Sequence record: OL631479.1
Origin: Escherichia phage ECML-10
Strand: one strand, 5' to 3'
Length of the DNA: 64,000 nt
The position numbers were made by a program, and so were the translations under genes. Below are positions 325 through 56,880 of this stretch, piece by piece (within the stretch, counting starts at the first letter, position 1; every line of letters begins with the position of its first letter). The notes under the pieces were generated by a model. That model was not told the origin of the DNA. It made no database searches and saw only the letters and a program-made list of their open reading frames with translations.

Positions 325-1456
325 AGAATATCCACTTATTGAGTCCATAGATTGTCTGGCTGATCTTCTTGAACCTGACGCTATAGTTTATTATGACTTC
401 GATCAGGTTGCATATCAAGCTGCAGCAAGTTGTGAAAAAAGGACAATTGAGGTAACACACAAAGCCTCCGGACGTAAGAAGATGTTTAAAACACGAACAG
501 AGTTCTGGGGGCGGCAGAAGAACACAGTTGGTGGTTGGTTAAAAGCTGAGAATACCAACCGTGAAGCTGCATGTAAAAAGGCTGGCAAGGAGTTTATTCC
601 GTGGACACGAGAAGATTTCGATGTCTTGGATATCCAAACCCCTGATCCTGTAGAGAACTGCTTGCACACAATTAAGTGTAAAGCGAATGCAGTCCTTAAT
701 TATCTCGGTATTCCGGAAGATCGGTGCGTGGGGGTACTTGGAGGCACAGGTAATTTCAGACTAGATCTTCCCATGCCGGAAAGATATAAAGCCAACCGTA
801 ACAATACTCTTCGACCACTGCTGCTTGGAGATGCAAGACAGTATCTCCAAAAGCAGTATAATGCTCAAGTGATCAACGGTATCGAGGCTGACGACTGGTT
901 AGCTATCCAGCAATTTGAAGGTTGGAACCACTACCAAAAAACAGGTAAGTTCAACAAGTTTATTATCTCTATTGATAAGGACCAAAGAACACTGCCGGGG
1001 CTTGTGTTCGATCCCATGCGAAACGATAAGGGAGATTTTGTAAGGGAAACCCCTATGCTGATCGATAACGGTATGGGGAACATCTTCATGAAGCCTAATG
1101 GAGAGGTTGGTGGTTACGGAATGCTGTTCTTCGGATACCAAATGCTGTGTGGTGACTCTGCCGACAATATCAAGCCGTATCAAGGACTTATCGGTAAGGG
1201 TAAGTTCGGGGATGCCTCAGCATTCTACCTACTGTCTCAGTGCAGCACTCCAAAGGAGATGTGGGTGGCTATTATTGATCAGTACAAGAAGTGGTTCCCG
1301 AAAGGTGTTGTTAAGTATACTGACTTCAATGGTGTTGATCGTAGAATTTCCGTAGGTCAATGGATGAGTATAATTTTTGACTGTTTGTATATGAAGCGAA
1401 CATTCAATGATCAAACAAAACTTGTTAACGTTCTTAGAAATGTTGGAGCAATTTGA
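317..1456 (+). CDS. 5'-3' exonuclease / flap endonuclease (FEN, T4 RNase H / T5 D15-like)
   Basis: TTG start 5 nt after AGGAGG; motifs YKANR and GIEADDWLA typical of the 5'-3' exonuclease/FEN family. Confidence 0.75.
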   Translation: MSREYPLIESIDCLADLLEPDAIVYYDFDQVAYQAAASCEKRTIEVTHKASGRKKMFKTRTEFWGRQKNTVGGWLKAENTNREAACKKAGKEFIPWTREDFDVLDIQTPDPVENCLHTIKCKANAVLNYLGIPEDRCVGVLGGTGNFRLDLPMPERYKANRNNTLRPLLLGDARQYLQKQYNAQVINGIEADDWLAIQQFEGWNHYQKTGKFNKFIISIDKDQRTLPGLVFDPMRNDKGDFVRETPMLIDNGMGNIFMKPNGEVGGYGMLFFGYQMLCGDSADNIKPYQGLIGKGKFGDASAFYLLSQCSTPKEMWVAIIDQYKKWFPKGVVKYTDFNGVDRRISVGQWMSIIFDCLYMKRTFNDQTKLVNVLRNVGAI

Positions 1457-1788
1457 TGACTAAAAATTCTGTAGATAGTGCAATTATGGAAGCTGTTTTT
1501 GAGGATGATCATACAACAGGGACACTTAAAACAAAAAATACATTCGTTGTTGCCACAGGTATGTGGCGGTTGTATGAAGATGACACCATTTCATACATCC
1601 TGTACACTGATGATTACGCAGATGACCGTGTATGGTCTGCTGTTTTAAAAGAGGATTGTGAACTGATTGAGGGCGAGCGGTTATGCATGTTCCCCAGTGT
1701 GGAAACAGATGTTAAGCTTTGCTCTCTCGTCTTGTTCAAAGATAAGGCTTATGCTCCTGATGAAGGAGAGGAGGATGAGGAAGTATGA
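1456..1788 (+). CDS. hypothetical acidic protein
   Basis: ATG overlaps upstream stop (TGATG); acidic C-terminus EGEEDEEV. Confidence 0.45.
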   Translation: MTKNSVDSAIMEAVFEDDHTTGTLKTKNTFVVATGMWRLYEDDTISYILYTDDYADDRVWSAVLKEDCELIEGERLCMFPSVETDVKLCSLVLFKDKAYAPDEGEEDEEV

Positions 1789-2414
1789 GAGAGCGTCTAT
1801 TATCCATAGACCAGTCGTTGACACACACAGCTTGCGTTGTATGGGACGATGGAAAGCCTGTTCATAAGGTTGTGTTACGAACTCAAAGCTCATCTGCAAA
1901 AGAGAAGAAACCAGGGACGGTTTCTTTTGCAACAGCTGCTGAGCGTATTGACTGGATCTGCAAACAGGTCAGATATTATATCCACACGCACGGAGTTGAC
2001 ACCGTGGTTATGGAAGGACTTTCCTTCGGATCTCGCGGGGATGCCACACGTGAACTGGCTGGGTTGTTTTACGGTCTCGAAGTTATGCTTTGGGATGCTT
2101 TAGCTGATTGTGAAAATGACGGCCTGTTTAAGGTTCACACAGTGACACCAACAACTGCCAAAAAGTTTGCTCGTAGTCATCTTCCTGAAGAACTTGCTTT
2201 TGAGGAGAAGAAAAAGCTTGACAAAAAGACAGGTAAAGAGCATACTGTGAAGAAACCTGTTACGATGGATAAAAAGTTGATGGTTAAGGCCTGCGAAGTA
2301 TCTGAACCAGGGTTCCTAGATGGGATCAATTTGGTACAAGGTAAGGCCGATCTCGCAGATGCTTATTGGATAGGCAGGGCGCATCTGGAGGGGTTATCGC
2401 AAAGCGTAAAATAA
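1785..2414 (+). CDS. RuvC-like Holliday junction resolvase (putative)
   Basis: ATG overlaps upstream stop; N-terminal LLSIDQS, central VVMEG, C-terminal GKADLADAYWIG resemble the RuvC acidic catalytic residues. Confidence 0.5.
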   Translation: MRERLLSIDQSLTHTACVVWDDGKPVHKVVLRTQSSSAKEKKPGTVSFATAAERIDWICKQVRYYIHTHGVDTVVMEGLSFGSRGDATRELAGLFYGLEVMLWDALADCENDGLFKVHTVTPTTAKKFARSHLPEELAFEEKKKLDKKTGKEHTVKKPVTMDKKLMVKACEVSEPGFLDGINLVQGKADLADAYWIGRAHLEGLSQSVK

Positions 2415-12262: not shown

Positions 12263-12541
12263 ATGAGCTGCGAAAAATCTTTTTTCATCATCATTTACGG
12301 TAAGGATAACTGCCCACATTGTGTCAGAGCAAAAGAATTTGCAATCAGCAAAGGTCTGCCTTTTGTATATAAGACACTTGGCGAGGGCTACACAAAAGAA
12401 GAGCTTATTGAGAAGTGTAGTCCAATCGTCCCCCGAACGTTGCCGCAGATCTTCTTAGAAAGCGATCTTGACAGTATCCATATAGGCGGTGCCGACGATT
12501 TCATCTCTTTTGTTAAGAATGGTTTTGGAGAGAAAAAGTGA
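12263..12541 (+). CDS. glutaredoxin/thioredoxin-like redoxin (NrdH/NrdC-like)
   Basis: CPHC active-site motif near N-terminus, 92 aa, between nrdB and nrdD. Confidence 0.6.
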   Translation: MSCEKSFFIIIYGKDNCPHCVRAKEFAISKGLPFVYKTLGEGYTKEELIEKCSPIVPRTLPQIFLESDLDSIHIGGADDFISFVKNGFGEKK

Positions 12542-13398
12542 AAGTTGTAAAACGGGACGGTAGAGAAGAGTTCTATAACGGAATTAAGGTGATCAAGGCG
12601 GCAGAGTCCGCCTTATTTGAGTCTGGACATACTGAAGAAGAAGCTTACCGGATCGCCTGCGAGGTTAATGAAGTTGTTGCTAACAATCTACCAACCGACC
12701 AGTGCACGATCTCTGTAAAAAATATCCATATCCTTGTTGAAGACGCTCTTATGGATATGGGTTTAAAATGTGCAGCCAGAGAATACATCCAGTATAGGCA
12801 GACAAGAGATAATAACAGAGAGGCAGGTGGAAAACTGCTCGCAGATATTAGTGGCTTCTTGGATCGCACTTGTGATGAATTTACAAAAGAAAACGCAAAT
12901 AAGCCTACCAATCATGTACACACTCATCGTGACCTGCTTGCAGGCATCCTTAGCAAACACCTTGCATCAACACAGATCCTGCCAGACCGTGTCTCAGAAG
13001 AGCACAATAAAGGCTTCATCCATGTGCATGATCTTGACTACTTGATCAGTCCGTTAACAAACTGTTGTTTGGTAAATTATCCAGATATGTTGGAAAACGG
13101 ATTCAACATTGGTAACGCCCATGTCAGTAAGCCGAAGTCAATAGGGGTTGCAACAACAATCCTTAGCCAAATCTCTAGTGCGGTAGCTAGTGCTCAATAT
13201 GGGGGTCAGACTATGAGCCATATTGATCATTATCTGGCACAGTATGCTGAAGCGACCTATGAGAAGAACCTTAAATTTTGCCAGGAACATTGGTTGCCAG
13301 ATGCTGAGACTGTTGCAATGCAAATGACAGATAAAGACGTATTTGACAGTATGCAGACATTACTTTATCAAATCAACACGTTAACCTCTGTCAACGGT
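12538..13398 (+). CDS. nrdD: anaerobic ribonucleotide reductase, exon 1
   Basis: GTG start overlapping upstream stop; ATP-cone N-terminus; ORF closes with a stop immediately after ...TSVNG, which continues in frame after the intron. Confidence 0.8.
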
Positions 13399-14195
13399 TA
13401 ACAAACTGGCCGTTGTAAAACTCTCCTAACCTCATAAGAGGGGTCGGTAAATCCGGCTAACGGGGAACGCTAAGGCGAAAGCTATGCCAATCCCGTGACT
13501 AGTTCTTACAGGAGTTGGAACGGTTGTAACGACTAACGAAAGGCAGAGATGCTTGACAAACATTTCTGAACCAAGTAGTGTAGGGGTTAGTTGAAATACT
13601 AACTTCGAAATGGAGAGGCTCTATGAAAAAGATCATTCTTAATGGTGAAGAATCAAACTATGTGATTGATGAGGTTGGAAACGTATACGGAAAACGTGGA
13701 ATGCTACACCCAATATTGTGGGGAGGTTATGGAAAAGGTAACAAGCATGTTAAACGCCGTTATATGTACTCTTTCAACCACAAAGGTAAAAAGATTCGAA
13801 TCCAAACCTCAAGGATTGTTGCCTTGTATTGTTTGCCGGATGTCCCAGAAGACCCTGAAAACTGGGAAGTGAATCATAAAGATGGCAATACATTGAATGA
13901 TCATCCGTCTAACCTAGAGTGGGTTTTGCCGGAAGATAATAAGAGACATGCTTTCCGAACAGGACTTTGTCCAGGTAAGTGCTATAGGAAAGTGCAGGCA
14001 TACAAAGGGAAAACCTTGGTGGGTGAATATCCTTCACTCTATGCCTGTGCAAAAGCCTTAAATTTGAACGTAGGTAACGTTCATAGGGCTATCGAAGGAA
14101 ATGCCGAAGGTAAGCATCTCACAATAAAGGGTTATTATCTTATTGAAGTAGAGTAAGAGATAGTCTGGCCCTGTGGAAACACAGGGAGGAGACAG
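13399..14195 (+). mobile_element. group I intron in nrdD carrying an HNH homing endonuclease ORF
   Basis: about 800 nt between nrdD halves; exon 1 ends in U, intron ends in G; fused junction reads TSVNG|QTPFITLSLG; structured non-coding flanks around the endonuclease ORF; boundaries approximate. Confidence 0.6.
13623..14156 (+). CDS. HNH homing endonuclease (intron-encoded)
   Basis: GGAGAGG RBS; motif WEVNHKDGNTLNDHPSNLEWVLPEDN typical of HNH family. Confidence 0.8.
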   Translation: MKKIILNGEESNYVIDEVGNVYGKRGMLHPILWGGYGKGNKHVKRRYMYSFNHKGKKIRIQTSRIVALYCLPDVPEDPENWEVNHKDGNTLNDHPSNLEWVLPEDNKRHAFRTGLCPGKCYRKVQAYKGKTLVGEYPSLYACAKALNLNVGNVHRAIEGNAEGKHLTIKGYYLIEVE

Positions 14196-15458
14196 CAGAC
14201 TCCATTCATCACATTAAGTTTAGGACTGGATACCTCGGTCTTTGGTAGAATGATTACCAAAAACTACTTGAAAGTCCACAAAATGGGTCTTGGTGAAGAA
14301 CGTATCACACCTGTGTTCCCTAAAGTGCTGTTCTTCCTAGAAGAGGGTGTCAACATGAACCCTGGAGATCCTAACTATGATTTGAAACGATTAGCTCTGG
14401 AATGCTCTGCAGAGCGGATTTATCCTGACTTTGTTTCTGTTCCACTAAATCGTAAAGTGACAGGCTCGACAGATGGTAAAGTAACGAGCATGGGTTGCCG
14501 GAGTTTTCTTAGCAAATACAATGACTTGGAAACAGGCGAGGAGAAATACCTTGGTAGATTTAACTTAGGCGTTGTTAGCCTTAACCTGCCAATGATTGCG
14601 GCAAAAGCTAAGACGGAAGGTGTTGATTTCTTTGCCGTTCTTGACGAGTATCTGGATTTGGCATATGAAGCTCACCTTGTAAGGGTTAACCGTCTGAAAG
14701 GCACCAAAGCAGGGCAGAACCCTATCATGTGGTGTGAAGGCGCTCTTGCTCGCCTGGATCCTGAAGAGAGTATTGATAAACTCTTCTATGACGGGTACGC
14801 TTCCATCAGTATTGGGTATATTGGTGTGTATGAAACCTGTCAGATTTTGGGCAGGGAGGGTGACAAGGCTTTAGCTCTTGGAATACTTCAGCACATGAGA
14901 GATGCTTGTGAGCGATACAAGAAGGAAAGTAGACTAGCGTTTAGCTTGTACGGCACCCCTTCTGAGAGTCTATGCTATAAAGCTGCAACCTGTCTGGATC
15001 GTGAATATCCTGAAGTGTTGAAGCACGAGCATGAATATCTCACCAACAGTTTCCATCAGCCAGTATGGATCAATAGCTCTCCTTTTGATAAGTGGGAGTA
15101 TGAGGAAGGTTTTGCTATGATCTCCTCTGGTGGCAACATCGGATACGTAGAGACACCAAATCTGAAAAACAACTTAGATGCTTTGGAAGCTCTTGTTGAT
15201 TTCGGATATAAACACATTATGTATTTTGGTATCAACCAGCCTGTGGATAAATGTCTCAAGTGTGGTTTCTCTGGTGAGTTCAGTGCAACAGCTAAAGGCT
15301 TTGTATGCCCAGAGTGCGGAAACCATGAAGAGGGAACGATCAGCGTAATTCGACGTGTGTCTGGATACCTTTCCAGTCCTAACTCTCGTCCTTACAATAA
15401 AGGTAAGCAAGCGGAAGTTATCGAGCGAGTTAAGCACTACGGAAGTTGTGGTTGCTGA
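14196..15458 (+). CDS. nrdD: anaerobic ribonucleotide reductase, exon 2
   Basis: C-terminal zinc ribbon CLKCG...CPECG and glycyl-radical motif RRVSGY; exon start inferred from reading-frame continuity. Confidence 0.8.
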   Translation, partial: QTPFITLSLGLDTSVFGRMITKNYLKVHKMGLGEERITPVFPKVLFFLEEGVNMNPGDPNYDLKRLALECSAERIYPDFVSVPLNRKVTGSTDGKVTSMGCRSFLSKYNDLETGEEKYLGRFNLGVVSLNLPMIAAKAKTEGVDFFAVLDEYLDLAYEAHLVRVNRLKGTKAGQNPIMWCEGALARLDPEESIDKLFYDGYASISIGYIGVYETCQILGREGDKALALGILQHMRDACERYKKESRLAFSLYGTPSESLCYKAATCLDREYPEVLKHEHEYLTNSFHQPVWINSSPFDKWEYEEGFAMISSGGNIGYVETPNLKNNLDALEALVDFGYKHIMYFGINQPVDKCLKCGFSGEFSATAKGFVCPECGNHEEGTISVIRRVSGYLSSPNSRPYNKGKQAEVIERVKHYGSCGC

Positions 15459-53259: not shown

Positions 53260-53613
53260 TTAGTGACAATCACCCCAATTACGACCACACAAGTATTCAC
53301 CTGTGATCTGGAACGGGACTCCCATCATTTTAGAAGCTTGCCAGAAGCAATGTACCACCATTTCGCCCACAGGACTCCAGATAAGTTCAAGCTTTCCGTC
53401 ATCGTTCAGGATAGGATCGTACACCGTGTTTCCGTCTCTGTCAACCACTTCGTTTCCGTTTTCATCCTTGCGTGCCTTTTTGTACTTATGACCGTCAAAC
53501 ACATGAAGTTTGGCCTCCTGCTCTGCCTTAAATGCTTCCAATTCTTCAATTGTGTCGAAGGTGTACACAGTCTTATACTTAGGCGTGTCAGGAACCTGAA
53601 GTTGGTACTCATC
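53260..53613 (-). CDS. family A DNA polymerase, exon 2 (C-terminal segment)
   Basis: begins DEYQLQV and ends GRNWGDCH, matching the recalled T7 gp5 C-terminus after the HDE motif (HDEIQV ... ends in CH). Confidence 0.7.
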   Translation of the reverse strand, partial: DEYQLQVPDTPKYKTVYTFDTIEELEAFKAEQEAKLHVFDGHKYKKARKDENGNEVVDRDGNTVYDPILNDDGKLELIWSPVGEMVVHCFWQASKMMGVPFQITGEYLCGRNWGDCH

Positions 53614-54456
53614 CATCTGTTCAGGTAGGTCGTTAAGCTACCCCGCACCATTACGTGCATAGCCATACAGTTTCCTGTATGGATCGGACTACCTCACTGC
53701 CTTGGTAACAAGGCACCTCCCATTTCGACCGCACTTGCTGGCCTACTCTACTCGCTTCTTCACACCAACCTGTGTTGGAGCTATGCTTTCGATAGTCTCT
53801 GAACGTTACTACCAGGTGTAGTTTTTAGAGATATGTTTCCACTGTCTTCTTTGCTTTATAGCCCTGACGGTCTCATAAGGATATCCAAGATCCCTAATCT
53901 CGCATTGTCGTAGACCACTCTGCAACAGTTCGCAAATCTCTATTACCTCATCTTCTGTCAGCACAGCGTTGGCATTATACTCACCAACTGGCCTTACTCT
54001 GAGGTCATTATCATAGGCGTGCTTGATATTTCCACCAGGGGTGGTCCATTCCAGGTTCCAGTATGCATTGTTGTACTTATTCCCATCCTTATGGTTCACC
54101 CATGTGAGCCTTTCAGGATCTGGGTTTGATACAAAGCATTCAGCAACCAGGTGGTGGACACCTTTTGTGCACTGCTTCCCCTCGATTAGCATGGTTACGC
54201 AAAGGTAACCTCTACCATTATCAAAACAAAACATTGTTGTATGATCACGTTTCGATAAAGGTATTGTTCCATCATCAAACACGGTATACCCGTGATAATC
54301 AGCTGTTCTAGCCATTTTAACTACACCCCTTTAGTCTTCGCTGCGGATTAGCATATTGAGCTTTTACCATACTCAGGTGTAAAAGTCAACTTAGCTTTCC
54401 CGTCAATTAAAGAGGTTATTCGACATAGATCACTCTATGAAGCCACAATGTTATTT
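53614..54456 (-). mobile_element. group I intron in the DNA polymerase gene carrying an HNH homing endonuclease ORF
   Basis: exon 1 ends ...IIYYH then K-stop, exon 2 starts DE: the insertion sits inside the HDE motif; exon 1 ends in U and intron ends in G on the coding strand; about 840 nt. Confidence 0.65.
53809..54315 (-). CDS. HNH homing endonuclease (intron-encoded)
   Basis: motifs GVHHLVAECF and WVNHKDGNKYNNAYWNLEW typical of the HNH family. Confidence 0.8.
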   Translation of the reverse strand: MARTADYHGYTVFDDGTIPLSKRDHTTMFCFDNGRGYLCVTMLIEGKQCTKGVHHLVAECFVSNPDPERLTWVNHKDGNKYNNAYWNLEWTTPGGNIKHAYDNDLRVRPVGEYNANAVLTEDEVIEICELLQSGLRQCEIRDLGYPYETVRAIKQRRQWKHISKNYTW

Positions 54457-56880
54457 ATGGTAATAGATAATACGACGAACACCTTCATCGTACCACCCAC
54501 GCTTCACCATTTGGTGGTGCATAAGTATCCCAACCAAGTCACACAGCGATGCACCACCATTCTGTTGGTATGCATTAAGTAAAGAGTGTTTAGATCGGGT
54601 CCAGATGGCATGACCATCAAAAGAGTAGATAAACTTCTTACCCGTTGCTTCCCAGAATTTCTCCAGATCCTCTTTACGGCCCTTAAGACCAGGGTTGGCA
54701 TCCCAAAGCGCATCGATTACCCTTTGTCCCAACTCTGGAGAGATGTCCAGCATATCTGCAACTTTATCTTTTTGTGCCCCGTACATAACCCCATACGTGA
54801 TAGGTTTACCGTCGTTACGGGACACCTCTCTGCCTGCTACTTTTGTATATGCCTCAGCATTGTTTTGGTGTGCGTCTCCGTTACTTACAACATCGTAATA
54901 CAGGCCGTTGTCGAACTCAAAGGCACCCCAAGCCCCGATAAGCTGCTCTAAGTTGGACCCGTCGATACCGATCTCAAAGTATCCTGGAGGAACACCCCAC
55001 AAGCTACGCATCTCTTTACCCATAACCACTTTAGGAGAGGGTTTAGGCATGTTTGCACAAATACTGTGTTTCTGTCTGGAAGTGTTTGTTAATCCAGAGC
55101 TTTTAGCAGGAAGCTTATGGTCAATCTTCAAACGTGGGTGATTAAGAAGACCAGTGTCAACCTTATCCTCCTTGATTGGATCAAGTACCGATCTGCGGTT
55201 TCGCAATGATAACCATAAGACGATATCTTTAGCCATCTCTCCGTTCAATTTTTCAAGATTCGGACACAGGTGTCCAAACGTATCTTTCAGTTGCGGAGAA
55301 GTAATAAGTGCCCTAGCTTTTCTACGTATTTTCCCGAATACTTCCTTTTTAATCCTTTCGGAGTTAGGAAAGCTTCGGAACTTGTGCACGGTTGTCTGGA
55401 ACTTAGCATCAGTTTTGTTCCAGAAGTTGATAATTAGGTCACAATACTCTGACTCCAAAAGCTCGTCCATATATGCATATACTCGTGCATCAACATCTGC
55501 ATCAGGTAAAGCTTTCTTCTTGCTGTCTTTAGTTACATCCTTAGTTCTCCACATTGTCGGAAGCCAACCAGCACTGATCAGGTATCGCTTAATGTCGTCC
55601 TGATTGCTGATTTTCATAGGTATCTTGCAGTCCGGCATTCGCTTCTGCTGTAGATCACTTATTGCCTGATCCATTAGCTCTTTAGGTAAAGGTTGTGGTG
55701 TGGAGGTGCCCTTAATATAGCCTCTCAAGAAATCAGCCATCTTATCGTGGTCTTTGCAGCCCATCTCTTCACACCATTTTATCCCCATCTTACTGACATC
55801 TCCTGTAGAGGTAAATGCTCGCTTAGGTGGGGCTTTGAACTCTAAAGCACTCATGTCCACAGGATAGCCAAGCTTATCTTTTAACCATTTCCAACCATTA
55901 TTAGAGATTGTCCCATCTTGGTTAAACGGCTTTTCAGGGAACTTGGGCCGCTGAGACATTGACAGCTCTTTTAAAGGCAGTTGTGGTTCAACACGATCAG
56001 CGATTTCTTTCATCCACGCATCGCAACGGTCACGTAAAGCAATAGCTCCATCTATGTCGAAGTATACACCCTGACGGGCCTGCAGCTCCATCAGGAAGTG
56101 CTGCAACATGCCTCGACGTAATGCGTTCTTCCAGGTGATCTTCTTGAACCCTTTCGGCTTCTCTTTGGCAGGATCGTACATAAAGTTCTGCATGTCAGAT
56201 TTGCCGTAGAATACACCTTTTGATTCCGCTACCAGCTCTTTCCAGAGCAGCTCCTGGATGATAACGTCCTCAAATACACGATCCACATACTTCCATAACG
56301 GAAGATCGCGCCAGTCATCAATTTGAACTTTCTGGTTACCAAGGGCGTAGCCCCATGCCATAAGGCCGTGAGGACCAACAGGCTGCATTTTCTTAGTAAC
56401 CGGGTTGAATACAGAGTCCGGACAACCTTTTGGTAAAGGGCGATCAGGCCACAAGATTCGGCTCATCGCCAACGTATCAAACAGGTTAACCTGGTGATCG
56501 TTGATAGTCCCCATACATTTAGGATCACGGAACATATCAAAATGAATACCAGATAATCTTTCCATCAGCATAAAGTCATAACTGTAGCAGTTATGGCAGT
56601 TCAAAGCTGTTGGTGACCAGTCAGAATTTCCTGTAAGCCAACCTTCCAACTCTGAAAAATCTGCTATGCGAACTTCAAAATCTTTATAAAGAGTTTTCTT
56701 TGCCAGAATGAAGTTCTTAGCCTTTTCTATATCCTCCTCGGAGTAGTGTGTGCGGTCATTTAGAGGAAGGAACAGCATAAAACGGTTCTTATTCAGCTCT
56801 TTAAACAGGCCGCAGTGATAATAAAGATCTAGGTCTTCTAGTAAACCAGAGGCCTCAAGGTCGAAAGACCACATACTCAT
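54457..56880 (-). CDS. family A DNA polymerase, exon 1 (3'-5' exonuclease and most of the polymerase domain)
   Basis: AAGGAGAAC RBS; N-terminal exo motif FDLEASGL; motif-B-like RNDGKPITYGVMYGAQ; reading frame stops one codon after the H of HDE. Confidence 0.8.

Follow-up and report, generated by a model that had tools for sequence, protein, structure and literature searches.

A group I intron with an HNH endonuclease gene interrupts motif C of the family A DNA polymerase gene of Escherichia phage ECML-10

A polymerase gene interrupted within its catalytic motif

Escherichia phage ECML-10 is an rV5-like coliphage (Vequintavirus), and the stretch of DNA analysed here (64,000 nucleotides (nt) of record OL631479.1, hereafter the window) carries its DNA polymerase gene on the minus strand. 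Three minus-strand open reading frames (ORFs) that share one frame occupy the locus: 54451..56880, which encodes 809 amino acids (aa) with the C-terminal end ...GWYDEGVRRIIYYHK before the stop; 53809..54315; and 53260..53616, which reads MDEYQLQV...GRNWGDCH. On the coding strand, the upstream junction (marked here by a caret) reads ...UAU UAC CAU^AAA UAA..., with one extra codon followed by a stop, and the downstream junction reads ...ACAGAUG^GAU GAG UAC. In phage CarlMeissner, which has no intron here, one coding sequence (CDS) encodes a 925-aa polymerase and reads ...TATTACCAT^GACGAATATCAG; comparison with this allele places an 843-nt insert at 53614..54456 (minus strand). These boundaries are unambiguous because a one-base shift either way would not restore the CarlMeissner sequence. 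The insertion lies between the His and the Asp of the catalytic His-Asp-Glu (HDE) motif (motif C) of the polymerase. A first-pass annotation of the window had placed an intron at 53614-54456, and the intron-free allele reveals that these coordinates are exact. The ORF list and junction sequences likewise bear out its account of a polymerase frame that ends one codon past the junction and a downstream ORF reading DEYQLQV...GRNWGDCH, and the U before the 5' splice site and the G as last intron base that it described are both read on the coding strand.

Joining the two polymerase ORFs would give the ligated junction TATTACCAT^GATGAGTAC and, in the protein, a predicted tryptic junction peptide, IIYYHDEYQLQVPDTPK, across H808-D809. 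The joined 925-aa protein matched T7 DNA polymerase gp5 (E 3e-16) in an alignment that crosses the junction (riiyyHDEyql / ymawvHDEiqv), with H808-D809-E810 aligned to T7 H653-D654-E655 and D640 of motif A, in exon 1, aligned to T7 D475. This alignment of the spliced product, which had been proposed as a check, confirmed that joining restores HDE and that the split falls between the motif C His and Asp. Once the exons are joined, the motif A Asp and the motif C His-Asp-Glu stand in one polypeptide, as in family A enzymes of the T7 gp5 type. The two carboxylates that bind metal in T7 gp5 are D475 and D654, and exon 1 alone cannot polymerise because the D654-equivalent carboxylate sits in exon 2. 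The profile phrog_8888 is contiguous over the junction, with exon 1 reaching profile position 185 and exon 2 continuing from 186, and T7 gene 5 reads GTA CAT^GAT GAA at the homologous place. Direct alignment of the C-termini paired T7 GPNWAICH with GRNWGDCH in ECML-10; the match to a T7 gp5 C-terminus ending in CH given in the first-pass annotation was right. Exon 2 alone gave no meaningful match against PDB.

A covarying group I ribozyme with an endonuclease gene in P6a

We searched the insert with covariance models, the analysis that the first-pass annotation had recommended for 53614-54456. RF00028 was the only Rfam family matched, and it aligned over the full model (positions 1-253) with 29.1 bits and E 5.8e-5 (E 0.0019 in a search of the whole window), against a curated cut-off of 50 bits. 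The score of the window copy is low because 528 nt of ORF sit within the RNA, in P6a. Homologues at the same site that have no ORF exceeded the cut-off: JLBYU08 (329 nt) scored 72.5 bits, rV5 (276 nt) 64.7 bits, 18-1-2 (317 nt) 91.2 bits and Vibrio phage K412 (254 nt) 77.3 bits. JLBYU08 is an ORF-less twin of the ECML-10 intron, as its core differs from the window core by 1 nt and it has the hairpin CAUCC-GAGA-GGAUG in place of the ORF.

A secondary structure model from P1 to P9.2 was drawn on JLBYU08 and tested on 14 intron cores with their ORFs removed (alignment A3), taken from Vequintavirus, Avunavirus, Certrevirus and Seunavirus phages and from Aeromonas, Vibrio and Pseudaeromonas phages. 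In slid controls, helix partners were moved by 1-3 columns. Standard pairs filled 92.1% of cells compared with 35-44% in the slid controls, a percentage inflated by derivation of the model from one aligned member, which does not inflate the compensatory counts. Pairs changed on both sides numbered 44 compared with 8-18, the covariation score was 0.383 compared with at most 0.087, and 0 of 500 shuffles reached the values of the model. P2, P7, P9 and P9.1 were fully paired (100%) in the 14 cores, and P3, P6, P7, P7.2, P8, P9 and P9.2 each had 2-5 compensatory pairs (three in P3, two in P6, three in P7, five in P8 and five in P7.2). P1 carries no covariation information because it is invariant. 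Every pair of the model is canonical in the window copy. The last intron base is an invariant G among 15 homologous introns, and exon 2 starts GAUGA in 15 of 15 intron-bearing alleles and GAC in CarlMeissner, the sole intron-free allele inspected at nucleotide level. These results demonstrate that the intervening RNA is a group I intron; the P3-P9 core on which the first-pass annotation had made its proposal depend is present with strong covariation.

Group I introns of subgroup IA2 have P7.1 and P7.2 between P7 and the 3' strand of P3, joined by G-U-A (PMC3428280). In this set of introns the GUA linker is invariant and a P7.1 hairpin is found in all types but K412; the ECML-10 intron is of IA2-type architecture, assigned on the P7.1-GUA-P7.2 criterion. 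An alternative P7.1 pairing, CUAUCG/CGAGUAG, which would compete with P7, was rejected since changes in phage KLEP7 preserve P7 and break the alternative. A candidate tertiary pairing of J2/3 (GUCG) with the P9.2 loop (CGAC) was dropped, being absent in KLEP7. At the first P6 pair (window position 54341 with 53803; A3 columns 157/192), 10 sequences have G.U and one has A-U, and in rV5, CB7 and KLEP7 an A stands opposite C with no standard pair. This A/C combination may be an isosteric wobble exchange rather than a broken pair.

The ORF within the intron encodes a 168-aa protein in the orientation of the polymerase. It matched the HNH endonuclease I-HmuI (PDB 1u3e; E 3e-5), with vnHkdgNkyNNaywNlew aligned to vdHkdgNkdNNlstNlrw, and the His and Asn residues of the HNH motif are conserved. 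It also matched phrog_59, "HNH endonuclease" (E 1.5e-36), and relatives of the protein occur in 1452 phage records. The first-pass assignment of an HNH endonuclease to the insert is thus upheld by both matches. The 17 nt after P6 (ACUAAAGGGGUGUAGUU) can pair with the last 16 nt of the insert (AACUACACCUGGUAGU) to close P6a around the ORF. This duplex has a calculated energy of -16.6 kcal/mol, equalled by 2 of 500 shuffles and by 0 of 90 internal windows. Comparable significant closing stems, of differing sequence, were found in seven of eight ORF-bearing variants, and between phage Av-05 and the window a G-C pair of the stem is exchanged for A-U through a synonymous codon change. The stem covers the GGGG upstream of the HNH AUG (ribosome-binding site), and folding of the ribozyme may therefore mask the ribosome-binding site of the endonuclease, as described for other phage introns. 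The parts of the locus are listed in Table 1.

Table 1 Features of the interrupted polymerase gene of ECML-10, in window coordinates and in coding-strand order
Feature	Coordinates	Strand	Remarks
Polymerase exon 1	54457..56880	-	808 codons, ends ...IIYYH; exonuclease domain, motif A (GIDGSNLE, D640), motif B; profiles phrog_17 (6e-90) and phrog_8888 (positions 1-185)
Group I intron	53614..54456	-	843 nt, IA2-type architecture; in-frame UAA at intron nt 4-6
P1	54443..54460	-	Exon CCAU + intron AA pair with internal guide UUGUGG; invariant in 14 homologues
P1 splice-site pair	U54457 with G54446	-	5' splice-site U in U.G pair
P10 guide CAUU (intron nt 7-10), predicted	54447..54450	-	Complementary to exon-2 GAUG, 53610-53613
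P2 hairpin CAUAGA-GUGA-UCUAUG	54424..54439	-	GNRA loop; 6/6 pairs change on both sides
P3 5' strand ACCUCUU	54410..54416	-	Partner GGGAGGU 53715-53721; pseudoknot with P7
P4-P5-P5a domain	54342..54405	-	J3/4 AAU; P4 UGACGGG/UCCGCA, 94% paired; extended P5a hairpin
P6 5' strand GCG + P6a closing stem 5' strand ACUAAAGGGGUGUAGUU	54319..54341	-	ACUAAAGGGGUGUAGUU contains HNH Shine-Dalgarno-like GGGG
HNH homing-endonuclease ORF	53809..54315	-	168 aa, I-HmuI-like; in P6a loop, intron nt 142-648
P6a closing stem 3' strand AACUACACCUGGUAGU, then P6 3' strand CGU	53803..53823	-	AACUACACCUGGUAGU = last ORF codons + stop; P6 covaries
P7 5' strand GAGACUA	53793..53799	-	Partner UAGUCC 53686-53691; guanosine-binding helix
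P7.1 extended hairpin, GUA linker (53744-53746), P7.2 GGCCAGCAAGUGCGGUC	53727..53792	-	P7.2 96-100% paired, 5 compensatory pairs
P8 hairpin GCCUUG-UUAC-CAAGGC	53699..53714	-	Five compensatory pairs
P9 (GAAA loop), P9.1, P9.2 hairpins	53624..53682	-	
Terminal intron guanosine (omega-G)	53614	-	Final base of an AUG
Polymerase exon 2	53260..53613	-	DEYQLQV...GRNWGDCH, 117 codons + stop; motif C Asp-Glu and C-terminal His; profile phrog_8888 (positions 186-295)

Known counterparts, distribution and endonuclease variety

In E. coli Pol I, motif C is His881-Asp882-Glu883. Position 881 is thus the motif C His, and an intron there occupies the same site as H808^D809 of ECML-10. The polymerase introns of the T7-like phages phiI and W31 are inserted at Pol I position 881, belong to IA2 and carry an HNH gene in P6a (PMC3428280); as far as that source recounts the work of Bonocora and Shub (2004), the enzyme encoded in P6a is the HNH endonuclease I-TslI. 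The ECML-10 intron shares with them a family A polymerase host gene, the insertion site, the IA2 arrangement P7.1-GUA-P7.2 and the HNH gene in P6a, a likeness drawn from their description in PMC3428280. The hosts differ, as ECML-10 is a 137-kb myovirus with a 925-aa polymerase whereas phiI and W31 are 40-kb podoviruses. Autographivirus Koot was rejected as a further T7-like example, its HNH gene lying between structural genes and not in the polymerase gene. The polymerase introns of SPO1, SP82, Bastille and Pf-WMP3 are inserted at Pol I position 674 (PMC3428280). They are likewise group I introns in phage family A polymerase genes with HNH nicking endonucleases of the same family (I-HmuI is the best solved-structure match of the ECML-10 protein), but their site is in the fingers subdomain rather than in motif C. 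The SPO1-like and T7-like precedents named in the first-pass annotation are real.

The nearest experimental precedent is the intron with the HNH gene CB7_50 in the polymerase gene of Pectobacterium phage CB7, which splices in vivo as determined by reverse transcription PCR (RT-PCR) and Sanger sequencing (PMC7344957). The intron of CB7 and phiTE (Certrevirus, Vequintavirinae) has a ribozyme homologous to that of ECML-10, the identical codon boundary (IIYYH^DEYQLEV) and shared ends (5' AAATAACATTGTGGC; 3' ...TTG^GATGAA). It differs in having a shorter P5, a short P7.1 and a shorter HNH protein of 127 aa that is related to the ECML-10 protein through the HNH motif only, and its host gene has a second intron upstream. 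In phiTE, CB7 and GEC_vB_MG, a second HNH-bearing insert lies upstream, just before ...MYGAQ (motif B region), leaving the polymerase in three pieces. The ECML-10 intron shares its insertion site with the phiI/W31 introns and its descent with the CB7 intron.

The 1.5 kb around the intron are 98-99% identical to phage FFH2, whose annotation of the region runs DNA polymerase, HNH endonuclease, DNA polymerase, and to several "Campylobacter phage" records. The intron with its HNH gene is present in 30 of about 118 closely related records, and the rest have a 329-nt or 276-nt ORF-less intron or none. These allele types (intron with HNH gene, two ORF-less forms and intron-free) coexist among genomes that are >90% identical. 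An 80-nt probe over the ligated junction was uninterrupted in 68 records, and intron-bearing records break exactly at base 40. The same ribozyme is found at the same codon boundary in the barely alignable polymerases of Aeromonas phage 4L372D, Vibrio phage K412 and Pseudaeromonas phage KLEP7. Sixteen MG0656xx records named "Campylobacter phage", with C. jejuni as host, are 94-99% identical to E. coli rV5-like phages at this locus, and the best match to the window is "Campylobacter phage" A147 (99.1%); the C. jejuni host labels of the MG0656xx records look doubtful.

The endonuclease genes that the ribozyme bears across these relatives fall into three kinds. The type found in the window (162-168 aa) is 46-76% identical across genera and without stops; a 127-130-aa HNH gene occupies P6a in phiTE, CB7 and 4L372D; and a 197-aa LAGLIDADG gene is present in the same intron and site in PVP-SE1 and vB_Sen_SG_WM_RUS_R7. 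The LAGLIDADG gene is inserted after the P7 5' strand (P7.1 region) rather than in P6a, where the hairpin is intact, and it looks like an independent invasion by an endonuclease gene. In FFH2, 241Ecol014PP, Av-05 and CB7, the polymerase gene has a free-standing HNH gene as an immediate neighbour. Such an arrangement recalls collaborative homing, which, as summarised in PMC3984707 from Bonocora and Shub (2009), involves the free-standing HNH gene 5.3 of T3 and the phiI intron. The gene arrangement in that model is shared here (ORF-less introns, introns with an HNH gene and free-standing HNH genes flanking the polymerase gene), the likeness being one of gene content and position. One tentative possibility, which we rate somewhat below an even chance, is that the ribozyme lineage at the motif C site is a long-lived shared landing pad at which unrelated endonuclease genes have been captured several times, and that rV5-like phages form a living series of all stages of collaborative homing. 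In 241Ecol014PP (locus 1195..1842), the intron is ORF-less and the free-standing HNH gene follows right after the polymerase stop, reminiscent of T3 gene 5.3. The exon-1 CDS of this phage is 1133 aa long and contains an in-frame stretch upstream of motif B that diverges from relatives, possibly an intein or other insertion.

Comparison of the window with CarlMeissner revealed that the last 160 nt of exon 1 are identical, that the first 33 nt of exon 2 have 8 synonymous differences and that the two are nearly identical again beyond. This pattern is only suggestive of co-conversion of the exon flank, because the flank of FFH2, which has the same intron and HNH gene, lacks the 33-nt tract and comes close to that of an intron-free allele. 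We also rejected the idea that HNH-bearing alleles share a fixed synonymous "immunity" signature in exon 2, since it is absent in FFH2.

A stretch of 60-80 nt in P4-P6 is 82-94% identical to another locus of the same phages, for which one match is annotated (terminase large subunit, DrSchubert). The same stretch also matches Felixounavirus-like Salmonella and E. coli phages, once inside a DNA polymerase I gene. Such similarity suggests that a family of related introns may circulate among enterobacterial phages.

Splicing, mobility and annotation

The insert boundaries, the restored frame and motif C, the covarying ribozyme fold, the HNH family of the encoded protein and the sporadic presence of the element among relatives are directly established. 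From these we infer splicing in ECML-10, the activity and target of the endonuclease and current mobility, and by analogy with the CB7_50 intron, a homologue at the same site, the ECML-10 intron is expected to be capable of splicing. We thus consider it very probable that the element is a splicing-competent, HNH-bearing mobile group I intron in a family A DNA polymerase gene. The polymerase gene would be transcribed from the minus strand as one pre-mRNA, in which P1 would offer the 3'-terminal U of exon 1, paired as U.G with the internal guide. Exogenous guanosine, bound by the P3-P8 core with its P3/P7 pseudoknot, would attack the 5' splice site; P10 (CAUU/GAUG) would align exon 2, and the freed 3'-OH of exon 1 would attack after the terminal G (53614). 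The ligated mRNA (...IIYYH-DEYQLQV...) would yield one 925-aa polymerase with motif C intact, and unspliced RNA a product that ends one codon into the intron and is devoid of the second catalytic carboxylate. In mixed infection, the 168-aa HNH protein would act on polymerase alleles that have no intron, nicking or cutting them close to the insertion site, and recombinational repair would copy the intron into the cut allele (homing).

Several observations weigh against this reading. Profile scores are low, as the window copy lies under the Rfam gathering threshold, Pfam matched DNA_pol_A in the polymerase below its cut-off only, and Pfam HNH_3 was sub-threshold in the 168-aa protein (17.7 bits compared with a cut-off of 24.8). 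The fold model was derived from one aligned member, and the cmscan alignment of the window copy put the 3' strand of P3 inside the HNH ORF. We rejected that placement, since ORF-less homologues are without that sequence and the true strand, GGGAGGU (53715-53721), covaries with P3. Differences in the exon flanks form no consistent co-conversion or immunity signature. Finally, a stop of its own ends exon 1 and an in-frame AUG precedes exon 2, making separate translation formally possible.

This last point leads to a permanently split polymerase, the one serious rival where the RNA step is concerned, in which the insert would stay in the RNA, the 809-aa exon 1 product and exon 2 (from the AUG at 53614-53616) would be translated separately and the two would assemble non-covalently. 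Split gp43 polymerases are known in some T4-like phages. Every homologous intron closes with AUG, UUG or GUG, the HNH-split NrdA of Aeromonas phage Aeh1 is a further precedent (cited in PMC7344957), and one CB7 HNH insert did not splice (PMC7344957). However, a complete covarying group I fold would not be kept without splicing, the exon-2 AUG has no Shine-Dalgarno-like sequence ahead of it (UUAACGACCUACCUGAACAG-AUG), the cut would part His from Asp-Glu inside one active-site motif, and the homologous CB7 intron splices (PMC7344957), all of which make a split enzyme very improbable. An intein or a group II intron merits next to no credence. In favour of such an element, the three ORFs share one frame and 843 is divisible by 3, yet both elements are excluded because of the in-frame stops (UAA at intron nt 4-6 and more between the ORFs), the lengths of ORF-less forms that are not multiples of 3 (329, 317 and 254 nt) and the Rfam result, in which group I is the sole family matched; nor was an intein or reverse-transcriptase domain found in Pfam and PHROG searches.

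A further rival, which we regard as unlikely, accepts that the intron splices and holds that it is no longer self-mobile, its HNH protein being inactive or serving mainly as a weapon against the polymerase genes of competing phages. A role in competition is discussed in PMC11878797, with the HNH of the phiPA3/phiKZ RNA polymerase intron as precedent. The position of I-HmuI Asp74 is Asn in the ECML-10 protein (vNHkdgN), the flanking exons have no clean co-conversion tract, and ORF-less introns are common and evidently stable. The N-H variant is, however, common to many family members, including the second HNH protein of the window, and about 30 isolates keep the ORF intact, with 96-100% conservation. 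Homologues travel with the intron across genera (46-76% identity, no stops), and the patchy distribution among genomes that are >94% identical fits ongoing gain and loss.

The final triplet of all 15 homologous introns, which is in frame with exon 2, is AUG, UUG or GUG and in no case CUG. This NUG at the intron 3' end may reflect a structural constraint or chance; more speculatively, it could provide a fallback start codon for exon 2.

Records of rV5-like genomes list two "DNA polymerase" CDSs and an HNH gene in place of one polymerase. Once the intron is recognised, the gene can be read as one 925-aa enzyme whose active site is intact, and correct annotation is the main practical value of the finding. 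The rV5 genome paper gives a 775-aa polymerase and mentions introns in the terminase gene only; this protein is an exon-1 product, and the RefSeq exon-1 CDS likewise has 775 codons. In the rV5 reference (NC_011041 126071-127604), an unannotated ORF-less group I intron of 276 nt lies at the same polymerase site (64.7 bits). The record names only exon 1 (775 codons) as polymerase, and exon 2 is a separate CDS from an internal start; a hypothetical CDS, gp222, lies inside the intron and gp221 overlaps the intron 3' end and exon 2. These small rV5 ORFs called in or over the intron are spurious. A search of one literature collection found no paper describing this intron in rV5-like phages. The ECML-10 intron is a new, unannotated member of a familiar class of selfish elements, at a site previously described in T7-like phages, and it leaves current concepts unchanged. 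It adds a further case of homing elements that target the most conserved codons of essential phage genes, and the wide natural variation of a single intron at a single site could be used to study co-evolution of introns and endonucleases and competition between phages.

The window also holds a second RF00028 match, at 13899..14186 on the plus strand (27.7 bits, E 0.0047). It falls in what looks like a split NrdD-like anaerobic ribonucleotide reductase gene (12538..15458, plus strand). The N-terminal piece is a 287-aa ORF at 12538..13401, and the C-terminal piece, a 402-aa ORF at 14250..15458, has an RVSGY glycyl-radical motif. A 177-aa HNH ORF (13623..14156) lies between the two pieces, and the insert in this gene is probably another HNH-bearing group I intron.

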